Assembly (NCBI GenBank): GCA_965209055.1
Contig: OZ242374.1
Location: forward strand, 4,448,001 to 4,512,000
DNA length: 64,000 bases
Source of the DNA: Acidobacteriota bacterium
Lineage (GTDB): Bacteria > Acidobacteriota > UBA6911 > RPQK01 > JAJDTT01
Direction: 5' to 3'
Positions 39,599 through 60,886 of this stretch are shown here, one piece after another. The notes under the pieces are model-generated. The model saw only the letters and a program-made list of their open reading frames with translations, searched no databases and was not told where the DNA came from. The translations under genes and the position numbers were made by a program. The number at the start of each line of letters is the position of its first letter. Position 1 is the first letter of the stretch.

Positions 39599-40300
39599 AT
39601 GCCGGGCAAGCTGAGCGTCATCATTCCCGTCTACAACGAACGCGGCACGCTGGAGGAAGTGTTGAGCCGGGTCGCCCAGGCGCCCATGGAAAAGGAGGTG
39701 ATCGTCGTGGACGACGGCTCCGACGACGGGACCCGGGAGATCCTCGAACGCCTCTCGATGAATGCCGGCCGATCGGATCGACTCCGGATCGTCTTCCACA
39801 ATGGGAATCAGGGCAAGGGTGCGGCGGTGCGCACCGGAATCGCTCAAGCCACGGGCGATTGGATCCTGATTCAGGACGCCGACCTGGAATACGATCCTCG
39901 GGATTATCCGATGCTTTTGGCTCCGCTCCAGGACGGCCGCGCCGACGTGGTCTACGGCAGCCGCTTCCTGGATGGCGCCCATCGGACCCGGTACTTTCAG
40001 CACTACCTGGCCAACCGCTTCCTGACCTTCGTCTCGAACCTGATGACCAACCAGAAGCTGTCGGACATGGAAACCGGCTACAAGGTCTTTCGCCGGGAGG
40101 TCCTGGACGGCATCCGCCTCCGGTCGAACCGCTTCGAGATCGAACCCGAGATCACGGTCAAGTTGACTCGCCAGGGATATCGAATCCACGAGATTCCCAT
40201 CTCCTACAACAGCCGCTCCTACCGGGAAGGCAAGAAAATCACCTGGGTGGACGGGCTCAAGGCATTGTGGGCCCTGTTTCGCTACCGGTTCTTCTCGTAG
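39599..40300 (+). CDS. Glycosyltransferase family 2 (polyprenol-phosphate mannose synthase-like)
   Basis: SVIIPVYNE, VDDGSDDGT, GKGAA, QDADLEYDP, YGSRF and DMETGYK. Confidence 0.93.
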   Translation: MPGKLSVIIPVYNERGTLEEVLSRVAQAPMEKEVIVVDDGSDDGTREILERLSMNAGRSDRLRIVFHNGNQGKGAAVRTGIAQATGDWILIQDADLEYDPRDYPMLLAPLQDGRADVVYGSRFLDGAHRTRYFQHYLANRFLTFVSNLMTNQKLSDMETGYKVFRREVLDGIRLRSNRFEIEPEITVKLTRQGYRIHEIPISYNSRSYREGKKITWVDGLKALWALFRYRFFS

Positions 40301-40304
40301 GGGC

Positions 40305-40410
40305 AGGAGGGGGGACTGTTGGTCCCTTAATCCCCCCTCGGCGACTGGGAAGTGTAGAGGGGGACTCCGTCTCCCTAACCCCCCTTCGGCGGTAGGAAAA
40401 CCGCCGCTCC
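40305..40410. repeat. REP-like composite palindromic intergenic repeat (intact copy)
   Basis: aggaggggggactgttggtccc ... gggggactccgtctccc ... cggcggt-aggaaa-accgccg. Colinear with 47125-47146 joined to 49914-50019. Confidence 0.8.
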
Positions 40411-43023
40411 TTACTTGCGGCGGGTCCAGGTTTCGAAGTTCCAGAGCTCCGAATCCCAGGCGTTCAACCGCACACCCTCGATTTCGTTGGAGTGGGCCGA
40501 AACGTACCCGCGGTGAATCAACGGGATGATCGAGTAGCTCTGCACCAGCATGTCGTTCAGGGCAATCGTGAGCTGGGCGCGCCGTTCCTGGTCGACGGTG
40601 CGCTGGAGTTCGGCGTGGACACGGTCATATTCGCCAGACTGGAAGCGCTGGACGTTTCCGCCGCGGAACGAGTTGGATGCCCCGGCGATCTCAGACGTGA
40701 CCCAGGCGCCCAGATAGCCTTCCGGGTCCACAAAGGATGAGCCGTTGGTATACATCTGAACGTCGGCGTAGAACTTGCCCACCGTGTCGGGGCTTTCCGG
40801 ATCTCCACCGAAGAACACCGAAGCGACGACGTCCTTCAATTCGGTCTCGACGCCGATCTCCGCCCACCAGCCCTTGATGTGCTCCTGGGTGGTCTGACGG
40901 ACGGCATTGGTCGATGTCTGGAACAGGATCTTGAGCGGAACCCCGTTGCGCTCCCGCACGCCGTCTCCGTCCGAGTCGACGATTCCGGCGCCGTCGAGAA
41001 TCTCCCTGGCGAGATCGAGGTTCTGGACGAGACATTCATCGTTGTTGGTCGATGCCTGGCCTGGAGGATACGGCCAGAGGTTGCACGTCGACCGGCCGGC
41101 AAGCGGACCATACCCGACCCGAACCAGAGTGTCGCGGTCGATGGCCAGGGAGAGGGCGCGGCCCACGACCGGATCGCTCAGGAACGGGTGGGGGTTCGTC
41201 CCTCCGGCGTACTCCGACCGGAGTTCCCCCAGACTTGGATCCGGGTTCGTCTGGTTGAGCATGAGGCGCTCGACGGCGGTGGCGAAACCGGTGACGATGG
41301 ATCCGCCTCCGCCCTCCGCCAGAGATTCCAGGACATCCGGTTCAATCTGGAGATTCCAGGCATAGTCCGCTTCGTTGAGCTGCAGCACGGCTCTTGCAGC
41401 ATCAGTGGCGTCACCGCCCCCCTGCATCATCACCTCGCCAAAATAGGGAACGCCGTAATCCACGCCCCGGTACAGCGGATTGAACTCGTAGCGGACGGAC
41501 TCGTTGCTGCTGAAATCGGCCACCACGTACGGTCCCGTGCCGATGGGCTGCTGGTTCGCTTCCGTACATCCGGCGGCCGACGCGCCCAGGCAGTCAGCGA
41601 ACTGCGCAGCCTGGAGAATCGGACCGTTGTAGGTCACGAACGGGGAAAACGGGAATGACGTCGGTCCATCGAACGTGATGGTGACGGTCCGGTCATCGAC
41701 GGCGTCGACCGAGCTTACGTTCGCGAACTTCGCCGCGTGGACGCAGCCGGCATCCGGCGCCGTGCAGTACCGCCAGGTGAATACGACATCTTCGGCCGTG
41801 CAGGGCGTTCCGTCGGACCAGACCACGTCCTCCCGAAGTGTCCAGGTAATCCGGGTCCGATCGGCCGAGACGCCGCCGTTGGCGAGAGTCGGAACCTTGT
41901 CGGCCAGAACCGGGACCAATTCCCCGTCGGGGTTGTACTCGGCCAGCGGCTCGATGACCAGGGATGCGCCTTCGGCTTCCTTGGTGCCGCGCGAAAGGTA
42001 CGGGTTGAGGATGGTCGGGGCCTGCCAATAGCGGAGCGTCGCCATCCCGCCCTCGCCGGCTCGATCCAGGTAGTAGCCGGCGCCGACCAGGATCGGCAGC
42101 CCATAGGAAACGACCCGCTTGACGAAAACCATCTTCCGGCGCTTCGTCTGGGTAGCGGGATTGAGGGACTTGTAATAGAGGAACGTCTCGCCGAACGCCT
42201 GCGCCACACTCAGGTCGTCCCGGTCGCTGTGCGACGTCAACTCGGAATCGGCGTAAGACCACTCTTCACGGGACGAGTCCCCGCTGAAGAGCGTCTTGCC
42301 GTGCCGGTCCACACCGAAGACGTAGATCGACTTGTGTGTCCACCGTGGGTCGGCAGACAGAGAGATGGAGGCGAAGTAGCCGTTCGCTTCCAGCTCCAGC
42401 GCGGCGCAGCGGACGAACTCCTGAAGTCTGTCCGCGGAAGGCTCGGCGGCCAGATCCATGGCGTTGACGTCTTCCGGCCTGCAGTTGCCGGGCAGGTCGG
42501 GGCGGTAGATGCCCGCGCCGATGGAGGCGGGGATTCCATCCCAGTCGATGGCTTTGAGGAAGGAGGCTTTCGGCGCCGGCTCTCCGGTCTCCGGATGCGG
42601 GGAGGCGTAGTAGATCCATGCCTCGTCGAATTTGGTCATGAGGCGGTACTGTTCCGCGTACCAGTCGTTGCCCCAGACATCGACATACAGCCCCCACGGC
42701 TGGCCTTCTCTCGACGGGTCACGCGGATAGACCAGCGACCTGGACTGATCGCTCACCGGCGACACCTCGTCCACGAAGACATAGATCGACCCGCTCTTCC
42801 ACCGGTCGTCCTCGTGGAAGGCCCGCCGAGCCTCCTCGAACCCCATTTCCTGGACATACTCGTGGGCGCATCGTACGAACGCCTGAACGTCCTCCGGAGT
42901 TCGGACGGCGCCCGCCGCAACGGAATTGTCGGAACAGGTCAGGTTTTCAGCGGCGGCGAAACCGGAACCGCCGATCAACAGGATCAAGGGAATACATAAT
43001 GGAGGGAGTGCCCGTCTCTTCAT
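40411..43023 (-). CDS. Peptide ABC substrate-binding protein (family 5) fused to two N-terminal Cache-like repeats
   Basis: The C-terminal ~545 aa have YWQAPTILNPYL, WSDGTP.TAEDV and PIGTGPY. The N-terminus has two repeats of FVRCA...W...SIYVF...GAGxY. Confidence 0.85.
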   Translation of the reverse strand: MKRRALPPLCIPLILLIGGSGFAAAENLTCSDNSVAAGAVRTPEDVQAFVRCAHEYVQEMGFEEARRAFHEDDRWKSGSIYVFVDEVSPVSDQSRSLVYPRDPSREGQPWGLYVDVWGNDWYAEQYRLMTKFDEAWIYYASPHPETGEPAPKASFLKAIDWDGIPASIGAGIYRPDLPGNCRPEDVNAMDLAAEPSADRLQEFVRCAALELEANGYFASISLSADPRWTHKSIYVFGVDRHGKTLFSGDSSREEWSYADSELTSHSDRDDLSVAQAFGETFLYYKSLNPATQTKRRKMVFVKRVVSYGLPILVGAGYYLDRAGEGGMATLRYWQAPTILNPYLSRGTKEAEGASLVIEPLAEYNPDGELVPVLADKVPTLANGGVSADRTRITWTLREDVVWSDGTPCTAEDVVFTWRYCTAPDAGCVHAAKFANVSSVDAVDDRTVTITFDGPTSFPFSPFVTYNGPILQAAQFADCLGASAAGCTEANQQPIGTGPYVVADFSSNESVRYEFNPLYRGVDYGVPYFGEVMMQGGGDATDAARAVLQLNEADYAWNLQIEPDVLESLAEGGGGSIVTGFATAVERLMLNQTNPDPSLGELRSEYAGGTNPHPFLSDPVVGRALSLAIDRDTLVRVGYGPLAGRSTCNLWPYPPGQASTNNDECLVQNLDLAREILDGAGIVDSDGDGVRERNGVPLKILFQTSTNAVRQTTQEHIKGWWAEIGVETELKDVVASVFFGGDPESPDTVGKFYADVQMYTNGSSFVDPEGYLGAWVTSEIAGASNSFRGGNVQRFQSGEYDRVHAELQRTVDQERRAQLTIALNDMLVQSYSIIPLIHRGYVSAHSNEIEGVRLNAWDSELWNFETWTRRK

Positions 43024-43998: not shown

Positions 43999-44799
43999 AT
44001 GAACATGCACCGAGCGGCGGATACTCCGAGCGCCTTTCGGGAACGGTGGAACGGCTGGCTCAATTTCTCCTTGGCCGCATCCCTGGTTCCCTTCTCCTAT
44101 CGGTTCCCTCCCCTGGACCGCATGGTCGATATGGTCCGCCGGGATGAGGGAGTCCGGGTCCTGAGCGGAAGACAGGGAGACCGCATGGACGAGACCGACA
44201 TCTCGCGCCAATTCCGGTCCCTTCCCATCCAGGAGGCCCTGGACTCACCATTCCAGATGTCCCATTTCGACCTTGCCCGGTTCCAGCGACCGGGCGGGAT
44301 CCTGGAGGGACTGGAGGAGCAGGTGATGGTTCCCTGGAAGCGTTTCCTCCGTTCGGCCGGCTTCACTTGGCGGAGATGCTTCCCCATCCTGTTCTTCTCG
44401 GGTCCGGGCTGCGCCACCAACTACCACATGGACCTCTCCCACGTCCTGGCCTGGCAGATCTACGGGACCAAGCATTTCCATGGCCTGACGGATCCCGGCC
44501 GCTGGGCGCCCCTGGACAAGGTGGTGCAGCAAGCCCGCCGGGAGGAGTTGTCCAAGCCTCGCAGACTAAAGCCCGAGGATGTCCTCACTTTCGTCATGAA
44601 GCCGGGCGACTGCCTCTGGAACCAGCTCCTGACGCCCCACTGGGTGGAAGCAAGCTCGGAGACGGCCGTGAGCCTGAACCTCTCTCACGGAGGACTGCGC
44701 TGCCAGGGCCGGCTCGCGCCCCAGGAGCAAGCCTTGGAAGAGTGGTGGAAGACCCACCCTGACGAAGTCTGGCTGGGACCGCCGCATCTGCTGGAATAG
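43999..44799 (+). CDS. Cupin/JmjC-like hypothetical oxygenase
   Basis: TNYHMD (HxD), WQIYGTKHF and MKPGDCLW..TPHWV. Confidence 0.72.
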   Translation: MNMHRAADTPSAFRERWNGWLNFSLAASLVPFSYRFPPLDRMVDMVRRDEGVRVLSGRQGDRMDETDISRQFRSLPIQEALDSPFQMSHFDLARFQRPGGILEGLEEQVMVPWKRFLRSAGFTWRRCFPILFFSGPGCATNYHMDLSHVLAWQIYGTKHFHGLTDPGRWAPLDKVVQQARREELSKPRRLKPEDVLTFVMKPGDCLWNQLLTPHWVEASSETAVSLNLSHGGLRCQGRLAPQEQALEEWWKTHPDEVWLGPPHLLE

Positions 44800-44824
44800 G
44801 AGGTGGGACTGTTAGTCCCCCACT
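44793..44824. repeat. REP-like repeat unit (uninterrupted copy of the element's target site)
   Basis: ggaataggaggtgggactgttagtcccccact. 30/32 identical to the reconstructed empty site at 47120/49918. Confidence 0.85.
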
Positions 44825-44880: not shown

Positions 44881-45783
44881 ATGTTCGAAGAATTCACCCG
44901 AACCCGGATCGACGCCGACGGCACCTCCATCCACCTCGTCCACGGCGGACAGGGCCCTCCGCTCCTGCTGCTTCACGGATACCCCCAGACCCACGTCATG
45001 TGGCACAAGACGGCGCCGCTGCTGGCGCCGCACTTCACCGTGGTCGCACCCGACCTGCGCGGCTACGGCGACAGCGGAAAACCTCCCGTCCCCGCGGGAG
45101 ACCTGAGCGTCTACTGCAAGCGGACCACGGCCAACGACCAGGTCCAGGTCATGGCCCATCTCGGGTTCGATTCCTTCCACGTCGTGGGCCACGATCGCGG
45201 CGCCCGGGTCGGACACCGGATGGCCCTGGACCATCCGGACCGGGTCCGAACCCTGACCTCCCTGGACGTGGTCCCCTCCCAGGCGGCCTTCGACAAAATG
45301 GACAAGGACCTGTCTTTTTCCTGGTTTCACTGGCATTTAATGCGGCAACCCGAACCTTTTCCTGAAACTCTTATCGGCAACAGCGCCAAGTTCTACCTGG
45401 ACTTCCTCCTGGAGCGATGGTGCGGCATCGAAGGCTCCATCACCCCGGAGGCCTACGACGAGTATCTACGCTGTTTCTCCGACCCCGAGACGATCCGCGC
45501 CACCTGCCTGGACTACCGGGGCATCGAGCTGGACCTGGTCCACGACGAGGAGGACCGGGAACGGCGGCTGAGCTGTCCGGTGCTGGCGCTCTGGGGCAGC
45601 GACACCACCAAGCGTCCAGGTTGGCAGACCGGAGCCAGTCTGGATATGCTCACGGTGTGGCGGGAGAGAGCCGTGGACGTCCGGGGCCGAGCCTTGGCCT
45701 GCGGGCACTTCCTGCCCGAGGAGCTGCCCCAGGAGACAGCCGGCGAAATCATGAAGTTCCTGGGAGTCCGCCCAGATTCCTGA
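44881..45783 (+). CDS. Alpha/beta hydrolase, fluoroacetate dehalogenase-like
   Basis: LLHGYPQTHVMWH, DLRGYGDS, GHDRGARV and CGHFLPEE. Confidence 0.9.
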   Translation: MFEEFTRTRIDADGTSIHLVHGGQGPPLLLLHGYPQTHVMWHKTAPLLAPHFTVVAPDLRGYGDSGKPPVPAGDLSVYCKRTTANDQVQVMAHLGFDSFHVVGHDRGARVGHRMALDHPDRVRTLTSLDVVPSQAAFDKMDKDLSFSWFHWHLMRQPEPFPETLIGNSAKFYLDFLLERWCGIEGSITPEAYDEYLRCFSDPETIRATCLDYRGIELDLVHDEEDRERRLSCPVLALWGSDTTKRPGWQTGASLDMLTVWRERAVDVRGRALACGHFLPEELPQETAGEIMKFLGVRPDS

Positions 45784-45821
45784 ATCATCGGCGTGAGTCT
45801 TGGATTGAAGGAGAACCCCTG

Positions 45822-47120
45822 ATGATGAGACGTCCCTTCCAGTTGCTCGCCCCGACCGCGCTCGCCATCGTCATCGGCGCCTGCCAGCCGGCTCCCGAGC
45901 CAAAGACGCCATCCGACCCGCCCAAGATCCGTCTGGAGGTGGGTGATCCCGTGACGGTGCCTACCGGCCAATACCCGGGCCTGTCCTACGGGCCCCGGAT
46001 GGTGACCCTGCCGGACGGAAGAGTCCTGGTCGGCCGGGGAGAGATCGCCTTGACCACGACCGACTCGGGGGCGACATGGGACGTGGGCCCGGCCATCGCC
46101 AGGCCGCACCTGCTTCCTCTCCGGGACGGAAGCTATTTCTTCCTGAAGGGCCGCGGTTCCGCCACCGGCGAGCCGGGGCTGTTCTCCCTGGAAATGGCGC
46201 ACGTCCAGTCCCTGGATGAAAACGCCACCGAAGAACGGATCTCCTGGTCCCCCGCCACGGCGCGCGTCGACCGTTGGACGCCGCTGACGGCCGACAACGA
46301 GAGCGAAGTGGACTACCTGGGCGTCGGGGGCCCGTTCCTGGAGTTGGATGACGGGACCCTGCTGGCCGCCTGCTACGGGAATTTCAAGGGAGACACGGTG
46401 CCCATGGAGGGATTTCCCGCCACCAGCGGCCAGAAGTGGTTCAAGTACCGAACCTACCTGTTGTCCTCCAGCGACGGCGGCGCCACCTGGGAGTACCTCT
46501 CCACCATCGCCTACGACGGAGTCACGGGCCAGGAGAGCTTCTGCGAACCGGCCATGGTGGACCTTAGCGGCGGGGAGTTGTTGGCGGTGATGCGGACCGG
46601 CCGTTTCGCGCCCATGTTCCAGGTCCGTTCCCTGGACGGCGGCAATACCTGGCAGGAACCGGAGTCCATGCACATCCTGGGTCTGGCGCCCCAGATGGTC
46701 CTGCTGGAGAACGGCGCCCTCGTGTGCAGCTTCGGCTGGAGACGTCTGAAGGTGGGCTACGGCCATGGACTCAACGACGAGGGCGGACCGTACCCGGTCG
46801 CATTGCGGGATTACCAGGAACGCTATCTTCAAGACGTGGGCATCGAGAACCCGTCCGAAGCGGCCGGCGATTACGTGATGGTCAGCCTGGACAAGGGGAA
46901 GACCTGGTCCGAGCCCCGCAAGTTCGCCGAGCCCCTCACCTCCGGGTACACTCTCTTGGCCGCCACCGGACCCGACACCGTCCTGGTCATGTCAGCCAGA
47001 CTCACCATTCCGGGCCAGTCCCAGGAGCGTCACCTGGAGATCTGGGAGCGGGAATGGCCCCAGTGGTCCGACAAGTCCGTCGTGGTAAGAGTCGCCCGAA
47101 AGATCCGCGTCGTGCTGTAG
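45822..47120 (+). CDS. Sialidase/BNR (Asp-box) repeat lipoprotein
   Basis: Lipobox IGAC. Asp-boxes TTDSGATW, SSDGGATW, SLDGGNTW and SLDKGKTW. Confidence 0.85.
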   Translation: MMRRPFQLLAPTALAIVIGACQPAPEPKTPSDPPKIRLEVGDPVTVPTGQYPGLSYGPRMVTLPDGRVLVGRGEIALTTTDSGATWDVGPAIARPHLLPLRDGSYFFLKGRGSATGEPGLFSLEMAHVQSLDENATEERISWSPATARVDRWTPLTADNESEVDYLGVGGPFLELDDGTLLAACYGNFKGDTVPMEGFPATSGQKWFKYRTYLLSSSDGGATWEYLSTIAYDGVTGQESFCEPAMVDLSGGELLAVMRTGRFAPMFQVRSLDGGNTWQEPESMHILGLAPQMVLLENGALVCSFGWRRLKVGYGHGLNDEGGPYPVALRDYQERYLQDVGIENPSEAAGDYVMVSLDKGKTWSEPRKFAEPLTSGYTLLAATGPDTVLVMSARLTIPGQSQERHLEIWEREWPQWSDKSVVVRVARKIRVVL

Positions 47121-47393
47121 GAATAGGAGGGGGGACTGTTAGTCCCAACTGTCCCACAGTCAAAGACTACCGAACGTTAACGTTTTCAATATGTTACCGG
47201 GTTCTTCGCCGGACCGGTAAGGTGTTTGACTCCCCATGTTTGACGTGCTGAACAGGCAACAAACAGGCAGCCGAATCGGTTCCTGACAGCCGCCCCGCCC
47301 TTTTTTCCCCTTCCGGTGCCTGGCTCAGAGCCCTTATCAGTTAGGCTTTGCTGACCGTTTGGCTCCACCGCAGGACTCAGCCTGAGGCCGAAG

Positions 47394-47621
47394 GTGTCCG
47401 GCTTCGAACGGCTCGGCATTCCCAAGCATCAGCATCCCCGGCAAGTGTACTACGGCACGGTCGGGAAGACCCGGCACTACTTGGCGTTCAAACTGCCGAT
47501 TGCCGTCGAGGACGACAGGGCCGTCCTCGTCGGTGTCGATCCGGAGCCTGTGGCCACCAAGGGTCTGCGCTCCTGGATGGCGGCGCACCGGCGGTGGAGG
47601 AGCGCTCCGTCTCAGTTGTGA
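47394..47621 (+). pseudogene. Short hypothetical ORF, probably a gene fragment, inside the element
   Basis: 75-aa ORF with protein-like composition (RHYLAFKLPIAVEDDRAVLVGVDP). No RBS. Function not recognised. Confidence 0.4.
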
Positions 47622-47831
47622 TCGAGATGACCACTCTCGGCCGCCGCAAAGATTTTTGGAGACTCGTTTCGGGTGTGCGTCAAGGGGTCTCGCGCCCGAT
47701 CCGGGAGTGTGAATGGGACATGGGGGGTGGATTCACAAAAAGCGGTCCCGGTGATTCACACCTCCGCTTTCCCCGATCGTTTTTCCTTTCAGTCAGTTAC
47801 GGCCCCCTACCCCCGGACGCCGGCGCCCGCA

Positions 47832-47959
47832 CGGGGAGATCGGAGGTGGACGGGAGCGACCCCCCCTTTTTGCTGCCCGGTGCGGGCGCGGGGGTGTTGC
47901 GCGATTCACATCTGCGCAACACCCCCTGGGGGGGTCGCTCCCGTCTCAATTATCCTTGC
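47832..47959 (+). ncRNA. Candidate structured RNA/ssDNA element, copy A (three-way junction)
   Basis: 18-bp outer stem (47849-47866/47928-47945) encloses 6-bp and 13-bp hairpins. Covaries with copy B. Confidence 0.6.
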
Positions 47960-48405
47960 AGGAAGGCCCGGAGGAAGACCGTGGACCGGGTGGACCTGTC
48001 CCCCCAAACCCCCCAGTGGCGCCAGAACCCCTGGCGGCTCACATTGCCGCCAGTGAACCTGACGCTCGTCGCGGGTGGGCCAGCCCCCCCGAACCCCCCG
48101 GATGCGAAGAGACACATACCAACTGAAAATCCCTTCCAGAGAGCGCCGAGGCCCTGGGTTCGAGCCTCCCCACCGTGTGGAAAATCAGAGATTTCCCACA
48201 GGGTGCGTCGTTTTGCCGACCCTACAATCAGCGCCCCCCACCAAAGAAAGTCTGCTCCCGGCTGGAAGCCGTCCGAGACCGCGCGAGGGACCCATTCCTA
48301 TGGGACGCGACAAACAGGAGCGCGTGAAAAAGGGTCAGGCAGGGTGAGCCTGACTCTTTGAGGGCGCCACTGGGGGGTCTGGGGGGAAAGGTTCCCCCCG
48401 GTCCG

Positions 48406-48685
48406 TCATCCGTTCCGGCTGGCCGGCCTCGCGGACCAGGACGTCACCGGCCCGCCGTTGGAGGACCTCGACCACGGTCGCGGTCCAGGTCTCTTGGCCC
48501 CGCGTCGTGATCGGGATGGAGCCGCCGAGAAGGCGCTCGGGGAGCTTGCCGGTGGCCGCAAGGCAGGACGAACTCCAGGAGCCCTCTTCGAGCTTGTAGG
48601 GACTCCACGCCGACGATACGGAGCTTTCGCAGGTGTTTTGCCATCGACACCGGAGAGGTTGGACAGGGGCCGTGCTGGCGGCCAT
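48406..48685 (-). CDS. Small hypothetical protein (possibly degenerate), divergent from the integrase; boundaries approximate
   Basis: The segment SPYKLEEGSW...LPERLLGGSIPITTRGQETWTATVVEVLQR...VLVR looks like a small beta-domain. The ORF-track frame (48335-48685) runs on into the structured region, so the 3' boundary given here is not a stop codon. Confidence 0.35.
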
Positions 48686-48744
48686 GGACAGGTGGTACGA
48701 TTCGCCCCATGGCGAAGAACCCGGATCCGGAAAGGAGGAGATGC

Positions 48745-49956
48745 ATGGGCATCTACAAGGTGAAGGATCGCCGGGGGAGACGACGTTTCGTCGTCAGCAA
48801 GTACTGGCCGAACGGATCCGGTCGGCTCCGAATGTACGCCCCCAACTACCGGAGCGCACAGGCGCTTCAAACACGAATCGAGTCCAGCATCCTGGACGGC
48901 ACATGGAAGCAGCTCAAGGAGGAGCTCGCCGGCGGGAAACGCACCATCTGGACGGTCCGGAGCTTCTACGAGCGTTTCTTCGAGGAGTATTGCAAACCTC
49001 GTCTGCGCTCTTTGCGCCGGTACACGCTCTCGTTCAAGAGCCTCAACGCCATGCTGGGGAACATTCCCTTGAAGGAGTTCCAGCGCAAGGACCTCCACCG
49101 CTACGTCGCGAAACGGAAGGGGCAGGTCCAGCCGGCCACGGTGAACCGCGACATTGCGGCCCTCAGCAAGCTGTTTTCCTACGCGCTGGAGTGCGGGGAA
49201 GTGGACACGCACCCGCTGGTGAGATTCCCCAAACTCAAAGAACCCAAGAAGGTCTTCCGGCCCTTGACGGTTCAACAGTTCCGCGACCTGGTCGAGGCGG
49301 TGGACAACCCTTACCTGCAAGCCATGATCGCGGTGATCGGCGAGACGGGGATACGGAAAGGCGAAGCGTTGTCGCTCACCTGGAAACGGTTGGACCTGTC
49401 CCGGAGGCTGCTATGGGTGGAGTTCACCAAGGACGACGAGCCGAGGGAGATTCCGCTCTCGAAGTACGCTGCCGGATATCTGGCCGGGCTGGTTCGCTAC
49501 CTGAACATCCCTTACGTCTTCGTCAACACCCGGACGGGGACGAAATGGGTGAATCCCGACAAGCCTTTGCGCCGGGCCGCCGAGCGGGTGGGGTTGAAGG
49601 TCGGATTTCACGACCTGAGACGCTTCCGGTGCAGCCATTGGCTGATGCAGGGGGTGGACGTGAGGACGGTGCAGAAGCTGATGGGGCACTCATCGATCAG
49701 CACGACCATGCGCTACGCGGGTTACGTCAGTTCTCATGCACTCGCCAGCATACGGGAGGCACAGGCTACCGAAGACTCACAAATGCGACCGGCAACAAAC
49801 AGGCAACGGGCAGGAAATAGGGGAATGATTAGAGAAGAGCAGTGGCGTAAACCCTTGAAAACACAAGCACACGCCCCAAGCTCAGCAGGACAGAGCACGG
49901 GACTGTTAGTCCCCCATTCTTCAGTGTCGCTACTGGATACGATGGGTGGTAGGTGA
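48745..49956 (+). CDS. Tyrosine recombinase/phage-type integrase
   Basis: AGGAGG RBS. Catalytic R (GIRKGE), K (TKDD), HxxR (FHDLRR), H (LMGHSS) and Y (MRYA). PATVNRD core-binding motif. Confidence 0.93.
   Translation: MGIYKVKDRRGRRRFVVSKYWPNGSGRLRMYAPNYRSAQALQTRIESSILDGTWKQLKEELAGGKRTIWTVRSFYERFFEEYCKPRLRSLRRYTLSFKSLNAMLGNIPLKEFQRKDLHRYVAKRKGQVQPATVNRDIAALSKLFSYALECGEVDTHPLVRFPKLKEPKKVFRPLTVQQFRDLVEAVDNPYLQAMIAVIGETGIRKGEALSLTWKRLDLSRRLLWVEFTKDDEPREIPLSKYAAGYLAGLVRYLNIPYVFVNTRTGTKWVNPDKPLRRAAERVGLKVGFHDLRRFRCSHWLMQGVDVRTVQKLMGHSSISTTMRYAGYVSSHALASIREAQATEDSQMRPATNRQRAGNRGMIREEQWRKPLKTQAHAPSSAGQSTGLLVPHSSVSLLDTMGGR
49871..49914 (+). other. tRNA-like 5' half (acceptor 5' strand, D-arm, GTT anticodon arm) at the element's right end
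   Basis: ACGCCCCAAGCTCAGCAGGACAGAGC matches the local tRNA-Arg 5' end at 21/26 positions without gaps. D-stem GCTC/GAGC is intact. No T-arm follows. Confidence 0.7.
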
Positions 49957-50027
49957 AAGTGCATAGGGGGACTCCGTCCCCCTGCCCCCCCTGGTCGGCG
50001 ACAGGAAAGTCGCCGCTCCCTCGGCGG

Positions 50028-51776
50028 CTAGAAAGCCGCTGCTCCATCCGTTTCCGGTTCGTAGACGGGGTCGCCCCGATGAAGGCGGATGGCCACGCGG
50101 AGAGTCTGGTTCATGGCCCTTTGCGTCGGAGCGTGAGCCGCCAGATAACGGGCCGCTCCGACCATCACCAGATTCCTTTCCTCCCGATCCTCGGTCTCAC
50201 CGTATTGCCGAACGGCCGCCTCCAGCATCTGGAAGGTGTGGAAGTTGGCGTCTTCCCGCATCAGGCTCTCGGTCAAGGCCGAGATGAGCGGGCCGCCGGA
50301 CCCGCCGCCTTCCAGGTAGGTCCAGACCATCTGTCCGGCCCGGTCCGTCTCCTGCTGGTGGTTCATGAGTGTCAGGAGGCGGGACCGGATCGAATTCCCC
50401 CCGGATTCCGCGCCGGCCGCCGCCCGGCTTGAAGGCAGTCTTGCGGGCGGGATGTTGAAGAAACGGTCCAGGTAGACCCGCATGGCTCCGTGAAACACGC
50501 CCCTTGTCAGGTCCGGCGACTGGTTGCGTTTAAGCAGTTGATGCAGGGCATTGGAATAGGTGAAGGTGTGAAGGACGGCGATCCAGTCGGCCAACTCGTT
50601 CTGGACGTGAAAGTGGACGATGCGCAGCGCCGCGGCATAGGCCACCGCCTGGGCCAACTCCACCGGTTGGGCGCCCCCACGCAACGCCGCCAGCAGTGCC
50701 TCGATGGGGGTGTGAGGATCGTCGCTGAAAAGGGTTTCGGTGAAGTCCTGCGGCTTGGTCCAGATCTTCCCCTGCCCCGATTCCAGAGCCTCGGGAATCT
50801 GAGCCACGGCCTGGCGCAGCACCGGCACCAGATCGATGGGGTGCCGCCACGGGTTCCTCTCCTCGCTTCGAACCGCCAGGCACAGAGGCCGGATCAGGGC
50901 GGGCAGCAACCGGCCGGCATGTTCCCAGCCGATGCGGTCCAGCAGTTCGAAAGCCTTGTTCACGAAGTCGATGACGTGACCCCCATCCAGGTATACGTGG
51001 TCCGTGGCCGCGGCCCCGACCAGGTCGGTCAGTTGCGCGCTCGTCATCCCCTTGTGGACGGCGGTCAGAAGGCAGCGCTCGGCGCCCTCGGTGCTGCGGA
51101 CCTCCACGAAGTAGCGGAACCAGCGTTTGAGATGCTCTGCCGGGATTTCCTGATTTCGAAGGGGCGGGATCTCGAATTTGGGGGTGCGGCCGGCGCAGTC
51201 CCGGGCGATGTGGACCAGGCCATGGTACAGGGGCGGGATCCGCTCCGTCCCCTCCAGGAGGTCGCAGACATTGGCCATGGCGCTGAGAATGGTGAGGCCG
51301 GAACTCCAGTCCCGGCGATGCCGGACGCCGTAGAGCGCGCCCTGCCGCGCGACCTCATGGTGGGAGACGCCGCTGTGGTGCAGTCCCACCACCGACTTGC
51401 CCATGATCAAGCTGAGGTTCTGCTCCATTCCCTCCTGGAGCCGCCGGCTCCAGCGCTGGACCGGATCGACCGGCGGCGGCGTGACGTCCAGGTAGACCTC
51501 TCCGCCCCGGACCTCCACACGGAAGGAATCCACGTCGTCCGCGAACAGGTTGAAGGTGCATCCGCTCACCAGGTCGAAGCGCGCATGGTGCCAGTAGCAG
51601 GTGAGGATGCCGTCCTCCACGGTGCCGCGGTGCAGTGGAAAACCCATGTGCGGACAGCGGTTGTCGACGGCGCGCAGCTCTCCGTCGTGGTCGAAGATCA
51701 CGATGGGGACCGGACCCTTGGACACCACCAGGGGACTCCTGGACCGAACTTCCTCCAGCGATCCGACATGAATCAT
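50028..51776 (-). CDS. Rieske (2Fe-2S) domain protein with large C-terminal helical region
   Basis: CPHMGFPL...TCYWHHARFD Rieske motif. C-terminal GHVIDF, HTFTY and FHTFQ motifs. Confidence 0.85.
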   Translation of the reverse strand: MIHVGSLEEVRSRSPLVVSKGPVPIVIFDHDGELRAVDNRCPHMGFPLHRGTVEDGILTCYWHHARFDLVSGCTFNLFADDVDSFRVEVRGGEVYLDVTPPPVDPVQRWSRRLQEGMEQNLSLIMGKSVVGLHHSGVSHHEVARQGALYGVRHRRDWSSGLTILSAMANVCDLLEGTERIPPLYHGLVHIARDCAGRTPKFEIPPLRNQEIPAEHLKRWFRYFVEVRSTEGAERCLLTAVHKGMTSAQLTDLVGAAATDHVYLDGGHVIDFVNKAFELLDRIGWEHAGRLLPALIRPLCLAVRSEERNPWRHPIDLVPVLRQAVAQIPEALESGQGKIWTKPQDFTETLFSDDPHTPIEALLAALRGGAQPVELAQAVAYAAALRIVHFHVQNELADWIAVLHTFTYSNALHQLLKRNQSPDLTRGVFHGAMRVYLDRFFNIPPARLPSSRAAAGAESGGNSIRSRLLTLMNHQQETDRAGQMVWTYLEGGGSGGPLISALTESLMREDANFHTFQMLEAAVRQYGETEDREERNLVMVGAARYLAAHAPTQRAMNQTLRVAIRLHRGDPVYEPETDGAAAF

Positions 51777-60549: not shown

Positions 60550-60761
60550 AGCACCCGAAACGGATCAAGACGTCTCGGATCTGAGGATTCCTCTATATTG
60601 TGGCCCCAAGCAAGCAGCGCAACAGGGACTGGTCCAACTACGAGCCCATTGAGATCCGAATGACGAGCGTTGTCGTTGGTGACAACATATGGCATGCGCA
60701 CAAGGACACGCCCCATCGGATGGATTCGGGCGGCACGGATATCGGGTCCGCCCGCGCCGAT

Positions 60762-60886
60762 CGGGGAAATCGGAGGTGGACGGGAGCGCCCCCCTTTTCG
60801 CTGCCCGGATCGGGCACGGCGGCGTTGCGCAACTTACCTTTGCGCAACGCCGCCTGGGGGGGCGCTCCCGTCCCATCAATCCTTGC
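60762..60886 (+). ncRNA. Candidate structured RNA/ssDNA element, copy B
   Basis: 17-bp outer stem (60778-60794/60857-60873) with inner 6-bp and 15-bp hairpins. Homologous to 47832-47959. Confidence 0.6.

Follow-up and report, generated by a model that had tools for sequence, protein, structure and literature searches.

Lambda-type tyrosine integrase elements that appear to land in REP-like hairpins of an Acidobacteriota genome

A stretch of 64,000 nucleotides from an Acidobacteriota bacterium (contig OZ242374.1, positions 4,448,001 to 4,512,000; G000:C1:4448001-4512000), in the following called the window, was analysed together with its source genome (G000), a 6.08-Mb single-contig assembly, and with the genomes of congeners. 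Window positions 47132-49913 are read here, with a probability of roughly 0.85, as a cargo-less member of a family of integrative elements which is run by a lambda-type (arm-binding) tyrosine integrase and lands in hairpins resembling repetitive extragenic palindromes (REPs). A first-pass annotation of the window had described a single integrase element inserted into a REP-like palindrome. It was right in substance and understated in scope, as about 28 copies belong to the family.

The 15-mer GGGACTGTTAGTCCC, named in that annotation as the boundary of a 2767-bp insert, is present exactly at window 47132-47146 and 49899-49913, the two copies being 2767 bp apart. It recurs exactly at 44805-44819 and with one mismatch at 40312-40326. 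At two mismatches or fewer the window holds four matches versus 0.14 expected, a number reached in none of 100 shuffles. When the flanks of the insert were joined by script, 30 of 32 positions of the product agreed with the uninterrupted repeat at 44793-44824, as had been reported. The flanks had also been said to rebuild the entire composite repeat of 40305-40410. The same three hairpins do appear in the same order, while the match is approximate and not exact, the alignment to the region of about 40285-40420 having 130 aligned columns, of which 109 are identical, and a further 40 columns of gaps. A flank of the ggaggg type is found upstream of most hairpins, free and occupied alike. The element and its target are made up as follows (window coordinates).

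47121..47131, plus strand: left half of the target palindrome (outer stem, ...ggaggg), directly after the stop of a BNR-repeat gene (open reading frame 45417-47120)
47132..47146, plus strand: attL core, GGGACTGTTAGTCCC, with 4-bp arms around the 7-nt centre CTGTTAG
47147..47345, plus strand: conserved left end (presumed P' arm), in all 25 complete copies, with extra orphan copies in relatives
47252..47269, plus strand: a pair of ACAGGCA repeats (47252-47258 and 47263-47269) with a spacing of 11 bp, candidate arm-type sites for binding of the integrase
47800..47985, no strand assigned: long-hairpin module with a 17-bp outer and a 13-bp inner stem, conserved in every element and also dispersed alone
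48745..49956, plus strand: tyrosine integrase gene with a lambda-like three-domain model, its frame passing through attR in the window copy
49799..49805, plus strand: ACAGGCA in the right (presumed P) arm, inside the 3' coding tail of the integrase, candidate arm site
49872..49898, plus strand: decayed remnant of a tRNA-Arg(TCT) 5' half, acceptor- and D-arm-like, adjoining the right core
49899..49913, plus strand: attR core, second GGGACTGTTAGTCCC, exact 15-mer
49914..50019, plus strand: right half of the target palindrome (ccattcttc...), together with a further pair of REP-like hairpins at 49966-49982 and 49997-50014 which belong to the composite array

Downstream of this array follows a convergent Rieske-domain gene (open reading frame 50028-51776, minus strand).

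A blastn search of the source genome with the 2782-bp element yielded 161 high-scoring segment pairs. At E<=1e-30 the integrase was matched 28 times in this genome and 14, 3, 3, 3, 2, 1, 1 and 0 times in the congeners. Twenty five complete elements with both ends defined, ranging from 2,699 to 25,079 bp, were found in addition to fragments. A left end without a partner at genome position 484600 is degenerate, and another, at 6074465-6077182, runs off the end of the contig, and since this contig end falls inside a family copy the assembly probably broke on the repeat and is not closed there. A twin of the window element at genome 6054127-6056908 is 100% identical over 2782 bp, and its flanks diverge immediately outside the hairpin. 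The earlier proposal that a multicopy intergenic repeat serves as attB was supported when copies and insertion sites were tabulated: each of the 25 complete copies has one half of a multicopy palindromic intergenic hairpin on either side, and none is located in a tRNA gene or at a site lacking a hairpin. Like REPs, the target repeats are short imperfect palindromes, intergenic and present in many copies.

The hairpins into which the elements are inserted fall into at least four classes. Eight of the 25 elements have GGGACTGTTAGTCCC at both ends. In seven others GGGACTAACAGTCCC is found on the left and CGGACTAACAGTCCC on the right, which is the GGGACTGTTAGTCCC hairpin entered in the opposite orientation, and the outer flanks of these seven are the reverse complement of the flanks of the GGGACTGTTAGTCCC elements. 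Six elements are bounded by GCGATTTCCAATCCC on the left and CGGATTTCCAATCGC on the right, and four by GGGTTTTCCTATCCC on the left and CGGATTTCCTACCCC on the right. In both of the latter kinds the chromosomal hairpin provides the outer arm (GCGA...TCGC or GGGT...CCCC) and the element the inner one (CGGA...TCCC). From the hybrid arms of the GGGTTTTCCTATCCC/CGGATTTCCTACCCC kind it follows that strand exchange is confined to the 7-nt centre TTTCCTA. In a tree of the integrases, in which two of the 25 rows (337540 and 6047297) are out of frame, sit on a long artificial branch and are to be disregarded, the two TCC-centred kinds form clades, and copies with GTT and AAC centres are intermixed, with one sister pair at 98/94. 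This intermixing indicates that the integrase protein does not read the centre. Tyrosine recombinases in general require identity of the overlap between the partners and do not read the overlap itself.

A scan for perfect stems of at least 8 bp yielded hairpin families of 79, 73, 51 and 50 copies, and 79 free exact GCGATTTCCAATCGC sites were counted. Among GTT-centred hairpin cores about 13 are free versus about 32 which are element junctions. The array adjoining the window element occurs 29 to 53 times in each of eight congeners, including G001, the one lacking an integrase match. The target hairpins have the form [GC][GC]GA-N7-TC[GC][GC], which is the geometry of an anticodon stem with its 7-nt loop. 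Further 7-nt centres (CTTTTAG, CTTCCAG, TTTCTAG and TTTCCTG) were found in congeners, each beside flanks of the REP type. As a separate observation, a Y1_Tnp-like (RAYT-like) frame was found at genome 1142808-1143728 (29-31 bits, cut-off 23; locus L083), with the right end of a family element (genome 1143771) at a distance of about 40 bp. The hairpins flanking this frame are centred on TTCC/GGAA, which hints at a REP/RAYT system behind the TTCC-centred hairpins.

The insert had been described as carrying an intact integrase, and all catalytic residues are indeed present in the window copy. The open reading frame starts with an ATG at window 48745, with an upstream ATG at 48709, and ends at 49956. 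The Pfam family Phage_integrase (PF00589) is matched by residues 186-337 with 93.1 bits against a cut-off of 27.1. Arginine 216, lysine 241, histidine 301, arginine 304, histidine 327, and tyrosine 336 (P0001 numbering), whose catalytic roles we take from their positions in the motif, are invariant in 21 of 21 aligned homologues. An AlphaFold model of the protein (predicted local distance difference test score, pLDDT, 85.3) had as its best match in the PDB the full-length lambda Int (1z1b_A, 349 aligned columns, template modelling score 0.63). The model contains an N-terminal domain with strands at residues 2-7, 13-20, and 27-32 followed by a helix at 35-51 (pLDDT 83-89), and the enzyme is thus predicted to be a lambda-type integrase with an arm-binding-like domain of a three-stranded sheet and a helix. 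Scores for other classes of tyrosine recombinases remained below their cut-offs, with 61.3 bits versus 265 for the integron-integrase model TIGR02249, 95.3 versus 335 for the XerC equivalog and 84.9 versus 330 for XerD. The integrase is the sole open reading frame conserved at 80% coverage or more in all 25 complete copies, in place of the DDE or DEDD transposase which is the hallmark of the insertion sequences (IS) that target REPs. Its frame crosses the right 15-mer into the flank in the window copy and in the identical twin only. In 21 of the 25 copies the frame terminates 53-88 bp short of the right end, and the remaining two carry a frameshift. Reading through attR was considered as a designed feature of the element and was rejected on account of this confinement.

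Potential arm sites could be recognised on both sides of the core. The heptamer ACAGGCA occurs at element positions 121 and 132 at the left end, both sites being present in 24 of the 25 copies and one in the 25th, and once more in the same orientation 108-127 bp before the right end in all 25. It is thus found at a fixed distance of about 105-125 bp on either side of the core in every complete copy, the background in the genome being 0.066 per kb. These repeats are therefore candidate arm-type sites of the integrase.

A hint to the origin of the family comes from the sequence next to the right core. The roughly 27 bases preceding it resemble the acceptor and D-arm of a tRNA, and for all four core types the best match of this remnant among the 68 tRNA calls made by ARAGORN in the genome is tRNA-Arg(TCT). 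At the window copy itself there is no tRNA, and in none of the 25 copies in the source genome does integration restore a tRNA gene. Relatives with 71-84% identity, on the other hand, sit in real tRNA-Arg genes. The sole family member of the congener G003 (81% identity) is an island of about 47 kb in a real tRNA-Arg(TCT) gene. The right end of this island forms the 5' half of the tRNA up to the anticodon loop, and its left junction carries the displaced original 5' half. A wider scan for integrases returned 45 loci, 38 of which were run through ARAGORN; the seven short or partial ones left out were L156, L169, L182, L185, L186, L190, and L192. A tRNA adjoined the integrase at one of 14 loci with at least about 74% identity, at all three loci with 71% identity (tRNA-Arg on the same strand in each case) and at 16 of the remaining 21, there mostly on the opposite strand. 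Sequence comparison makes the family a descendant of islands specific for tRNA-Arg, which retains a decayed tRNA 5' half in every copy.

Five copies (the window copy, the twin, and those at 3004455, 4664899 and 839108) were compared with the congeners for sites free of the element. The 2,746-bp element at genome 3004455-3007200 has flanks which are colinear in the closest congener, G008, with 97% identity on the left. There exactly 21 nucleotides, including one copy of the 15-mer, lie between the flanks, which is a clean unoccupied hairpin. The flanks of the element at 4661738-4664899 are colinear in G008 and in G001, with a hairpin beside the flank on the attL side. Beside the orthologue of the Rieske gene G001 has the exact 15-mer followed by ccattcttc.

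The surroundings of the window copy have a more complicated history. In the six congeners with both flanking genes on one contig (G001, G002, G003, G004, G005, and G007) the BNR and Rieske genes are about 600-850 kb apart and in opposite relative orientation. The empty site rebuilt in the window is therefore a hybrid, an inversion having joined two ancestral hairpin sites, and the expectation that relatives free of the element show the reconstructed repeat at this place held in part: each ancestral site contains a hairpin of the family, and the two flanks are never adjacent. One ancestral locus of G001 maps in the source genome to 3925219-3926587 and 4498041-4499790, and the other to 3900999-3902445, 3903959-3904117, and 4492832-4495141. 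Judged by these alignments, the window element and a 21-kb element of the AAC type at 3904154-3925235 are the two ends of an inversion of about 570 kb. The twin copy also lies at a synteny breakpoint, and the 2.36-kb segment (genome 6056909-6059270) which separates its right end from that of the element at 6059271-6068576 has the opposite orientation in G001. These inversions may be due to the integrase or to homologous recombination by RecA; the integrase of pTN3 provides a precedent for the former, and we assign the cause to neither. At genome 3903700-3903960 a 43-bp copy of the BNR gene 3' end and a GTT hairpin stand beside a truncated gene and the start of what we take, from its translation, to be an IS-like transposase, an arrangement which points to a further local rearrangement.

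From these data the following mechanism may be proposed. The attP of the circular form would comprise about 280 bp, consisting of the right arm with one ACAGGCA, the decayed tRNA-Arg 5' half, the 15-bp core and the left arm with two ACAGGCA. The corresponding attB would be a bare REP-like hairpin of about 15-21 bp with inverted arms of 4-5 bp, [GC][GC]GA...TC[GC][GC], around a 7-nt centre. The hairpin arms would act as inverted core-binding sites and the centre as the overlap for strand exchange, in a reaction which is presumably lambda-like and takes place on double-stranded DNA. An ancestor would have used the anticodon loop of tRNA-Arg genes for integration, with the 5' half of the tRNA supplied by the element. 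In this genus the core arms derived from tRNA-Arg would then have been retained and only the 7-nt centre altered, so that different lineages match different classes of repeats (CTGTTAG, its reverse CTAACAG, TTTCCAA, TTTCCTA, and others). Such switching of the centre could have opened dozens of harmless landing sites and led to the about 28 integrase copies in one genome, some of them with defence genes, and copies may be active to the present day. A bolder version, which we regard as possible and still rather doubtful, would make the element a self-diversifying "site-specific transposon", the integrase of which reads little beyond the 4-bp arms of a hairpin shaped like an anticodon arm, so that mutation of the overlap or copying from a mis-oriented target opens any class of REPs of this shape, and the same enzyme, working between att sites of different copies, flips segments of the chromosome. 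If this were true, one selfish integrase would place cassettes with defence genes at dozens of neutral positions and also be the driver of the large inversions relative to the congeners.

Several points weigh against the reading of the window element as an integrase-driven insertion into a REP-like hairpin. The window flanks are not neighbours in any relative searched, and being non-adjacent there they do not allow the window copy alone to demonstrate a simple insertion. The C-terminal tail of its integrase is altered, and this particular copy need not be active. One flank of the element at 839108 could be found in none of the eight loci fetched from relatives. The hairpin at the 3004455 site is present in G008 only, with a different hairpin in G002 and none in the others; the hairpins themselves turn over. 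The role of ACAGGCA as an arm site leans on conservation among related copies which are not independent, and neither an excisionase nor another conserved small open reading frame was found among the open reading frames of the element. A conservative recombinase alone does not raise copy number, so 28 copies need an extra step, for which replication of the circle, transfer between chromosome copies or between cells, or duplication would be candidates. Finally, no public contig bridges the element, the empty site or the circle junction, which says nothing either way, as these contigs (the best being X19 and X20, with 0.69 and 0.65 of the sampled words in common) stop at hairpins, for example at window 47118. 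Apparent joints in such contigs from 47146 to 49925-49996 were discarded, as their sides are only 20-26 letters long and are separated by other letters, which shows them to be other free hairpins.

Three other explanations have to be compared with this reading. The same chemistry could act on a hairpin folded as single strand or cruciform, as with the attC sites of integrons and XerCD at the attP of CTX phage, so that structure is read over sequence. The targets are perfect GC-rich palindromes of 9-12 bp with short loops, many centres and some differing arms are used across the genus, and the protein has a weak similarity to integron integrase models, all of which would fit. That similarity, however, remains at 61.3 bits against the required 265, and the predicted three-domain fold matches full-length lambda Int, an enzyme acting on duplex DNA. 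Candidate arm sites at fixed positions on both sides of the core, hybrid arms in attL and attR as expected for a duplex core with a 7-bp overlap, and ancestral targets in tRNA genes, which are ordinary duplex sites, also argue for the duplex pathway, and we consider the folded substrate unlikely.

Alternatively, the copies might be relics that were multiplied by segmental duplication, gene conversion or recombination between repeats, their association with hairpins being a by-product. Such a history could draw on the heavy rearrangement of the source genome, on the position at synteny breakpoints of the window copy and its twin, the two copies for which both flanks were traced, and on the at least 1.2 kb shared between copies at 88-100% identity, which is sufficient for RecA. 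It does not explain why the identity with the twin ends within the hairpin on both sides, why all 25 copies end precisely at the core with the inner arm being the element's and the outer arm the repeat's, why an exact empty site, with one core, exists in a relative, and why there are at least four core classes, each matching its own class of hairpin; we hold it to be highly improbable. The element itself might also produce the hairpins or bring them along, as footprints or as terminal structures, in which case they would not be a target that existed before, as could be thought from the fact that about 32 of the about 45 GTT-type hairpin cores of the source genome are element junctions. Against this stand the exact 15-mer hairpin and 45 array matches in G001, which has no integrase match at E<=1e-30, and the at least 79 free TTCC-centred hairpins versus six elements. 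In addition the Y1-transposase-like gene between such hairpins suggests an independent REP/RAYT origin, and conservative recombination restores one site and creates none, which together leave a contribution of this kind extremely improbable. Insertion by a lambda-type integrase into pre-existing REP-like hairpins remains the reading which we prefer.

Tyrosine integrases are the textbook case of one element and one site. Here a lineage appears to have left its tRNA gene and to have spread through a repeat family to about 28 copies, with intermediate stages visible in neighbouring genomes. Insertion sequences targeting REPs are known from the IS3 family (IS1397 and ISKpn1) and the IS110 family (ISPpu9, ISPpu10, and IS621); they use DDE or DEDD enzymes, that of IS621 being RNA-guided. 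The present family shares with them the use of repetitive extragenic palindromes as safe multicopy sites and orientation-specific insertion, and differs in its lambda-type tyrosine integrase with candidate arm sites and in its cargo of up to about 22 kb. Tyrosine recombinases are also known to act at many short palindromic sites and to move gene cassettes in integrons (attC) and in XerCD systems (dif and pdif). Unlike these, the family has its own integrase, predicted to be arm-binding and scoring far below the cut-offs for IntI, XerC and XerD, and uses chromosomal REP-like hairpins as sites.

Closest in kind are islands and prophages which integrate in the anticodon loop of tRNA genes (Islander class 'A'), reportedly described by Williams in 2002. 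As in these, a tyrosine integrase is used, the core consists of anticodon stem arms with a crossover in the 7-nt loop, and attP contains a tRNA fragment, here the 5' one; the relatives of the element do exactly this in tRNA-Arg. The family departs from them in that no tRNA gene is occupied by any of the 25 copies, multicopy intergenic hairpins serve as targets, the decayed fragment restores nothing, and about 28 copies are present instead of one per site. As far as the available portion of the Islander report goes (Hudson et al. 2015, PMC4383910), 159 of 3919 islands have a displaced 5' fragment and 2083 are anticodon-centred, and by these counts the ancestral habit of the family would be a known minority type.

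Changes of integrase specificity through the core also have precedents. In the sections accessible to us, the work on HK022 Int (PMC7736782) describes a lambdoid integrase which needs overlap identity between the partners without reading the overlap and is promiscuous for overlap sequence, and that on Ms6 (PMC1762012) an attP core retargeted to other tRNA-Ala genes. To the extent that these extracts allow a comparison, the family resembles both in that a change in core or overlap moves the specificity with the protein staying the same, near-identical integrases here serving GTT and AAC centres. It would differ from them, as these are laboratory manipulations or single secondary sites, in showing a repeated natural switch with at least four classes in one genome and more centres in congeners. 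The integrase of pTN3 drives chromosomal inversions in Thermococcales, according to the excerpted account (Cossu et al. 2017, PMC5495485), which presents it as an SSV-type archaeal enzyme with activity demonstrated in vitro. On that account the family members at both ends of the inversion of about 570 kb and of the flipped 2.36-kb segment are a parallel, the difference being that the rearrangements here are read from sequence and may be due to integrase or RecA. A further paper (PMC3390384) treats, in the part at hand, REP deserts and not integration into REPs. No description of a tyrosine integrase family targeting REPs was found in the full-text literature searched, the coverage of which is incomplete and does not show absence from print. 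What we see is known in kind, being an island with a tRNA-type integrase, and new in its re-aiming at REP-like hairpins, in the natural switching of the overlap, and in the high copy number. As a natural experiment in re-aiming an integrase, with arms kept and overlap changed, it bears on the design of retargetable integrases. REP hairpins would gain a further role as landing pads for defence cassettes, and the heavy rearrangement of the source genome is offered a testable cause.

The description of the element as minimal and integrase-only, given in the first-pass annotation, applies insofar as the integrase is the one conserved open reading frame. The family reaches 25 kb with cargo, and in the minimal copy itself conserved non-coding modules account for another 1.5 kb. 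The content of three larger copies was examined: in one a trypsin-like protease accompanies a Type ISP-like restriction-modification enzyme, in another a Type III methylase is found with a Res helicase and a weak Schlafen/AlbA_2 match (22.5 bits, under the Pfam cut-off of 25.3), and the last encodes a large LRR protein. Given the single conserved open reading frame and the cargo of the larger copies, the window copy is the cargo-less form of a family which carries cassettes. Searches of the open reading frames in the left 1.5 kb against Pfam and PHROGs gave no family at the thresholds used and two PHROG matches at chance level (E 0.06-0.07), and Rfam gave two chance-level matches only in window 46900-50200. 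The long-hairpin module of this region, about 190 nt in length, has a folding energy of about -112 kcal/mol when folded alone. It is present in 62 copies in the genome, 57 of them distinct, with compensatory changes at 3 of 34 predicted pairs. A solo copy lies at about window 60749-60886, and ARAGORN miscalls two copies of the module as an 85-nt "tRNA-Val".

A group II intron of 1.9 kb interrupts the integrase gene at one and the same nucleotide (element position 1623/1624) in three copies of three different core types (genome 784166-786077, 3708108-3710021, and 5306069-5307982; loci L193-L195). It was identified by an Rfam scan in one of them, L194 (RF02005 with 160.7 bits and RF00029 with 41 bits), and in the other two by equal position and size; the pattern looks like homing among integrase paralogues. 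Left ends of the element exceed integrase genes in G004 (26 versus 14) and G001 (3 versus 0), and the surplus may consist of orphan ends or non-autonomous derivatives. A tandem insertion was found in G004 at locus L061, where the left end of one element adjoins the tRNA-like right end, an existing attR, of another. In the window itself, ARAGORN calls a minus-strand tRNA-Ser(CGA) at 40126-40214, a short way upstream of the composite repeat (40305-40410).

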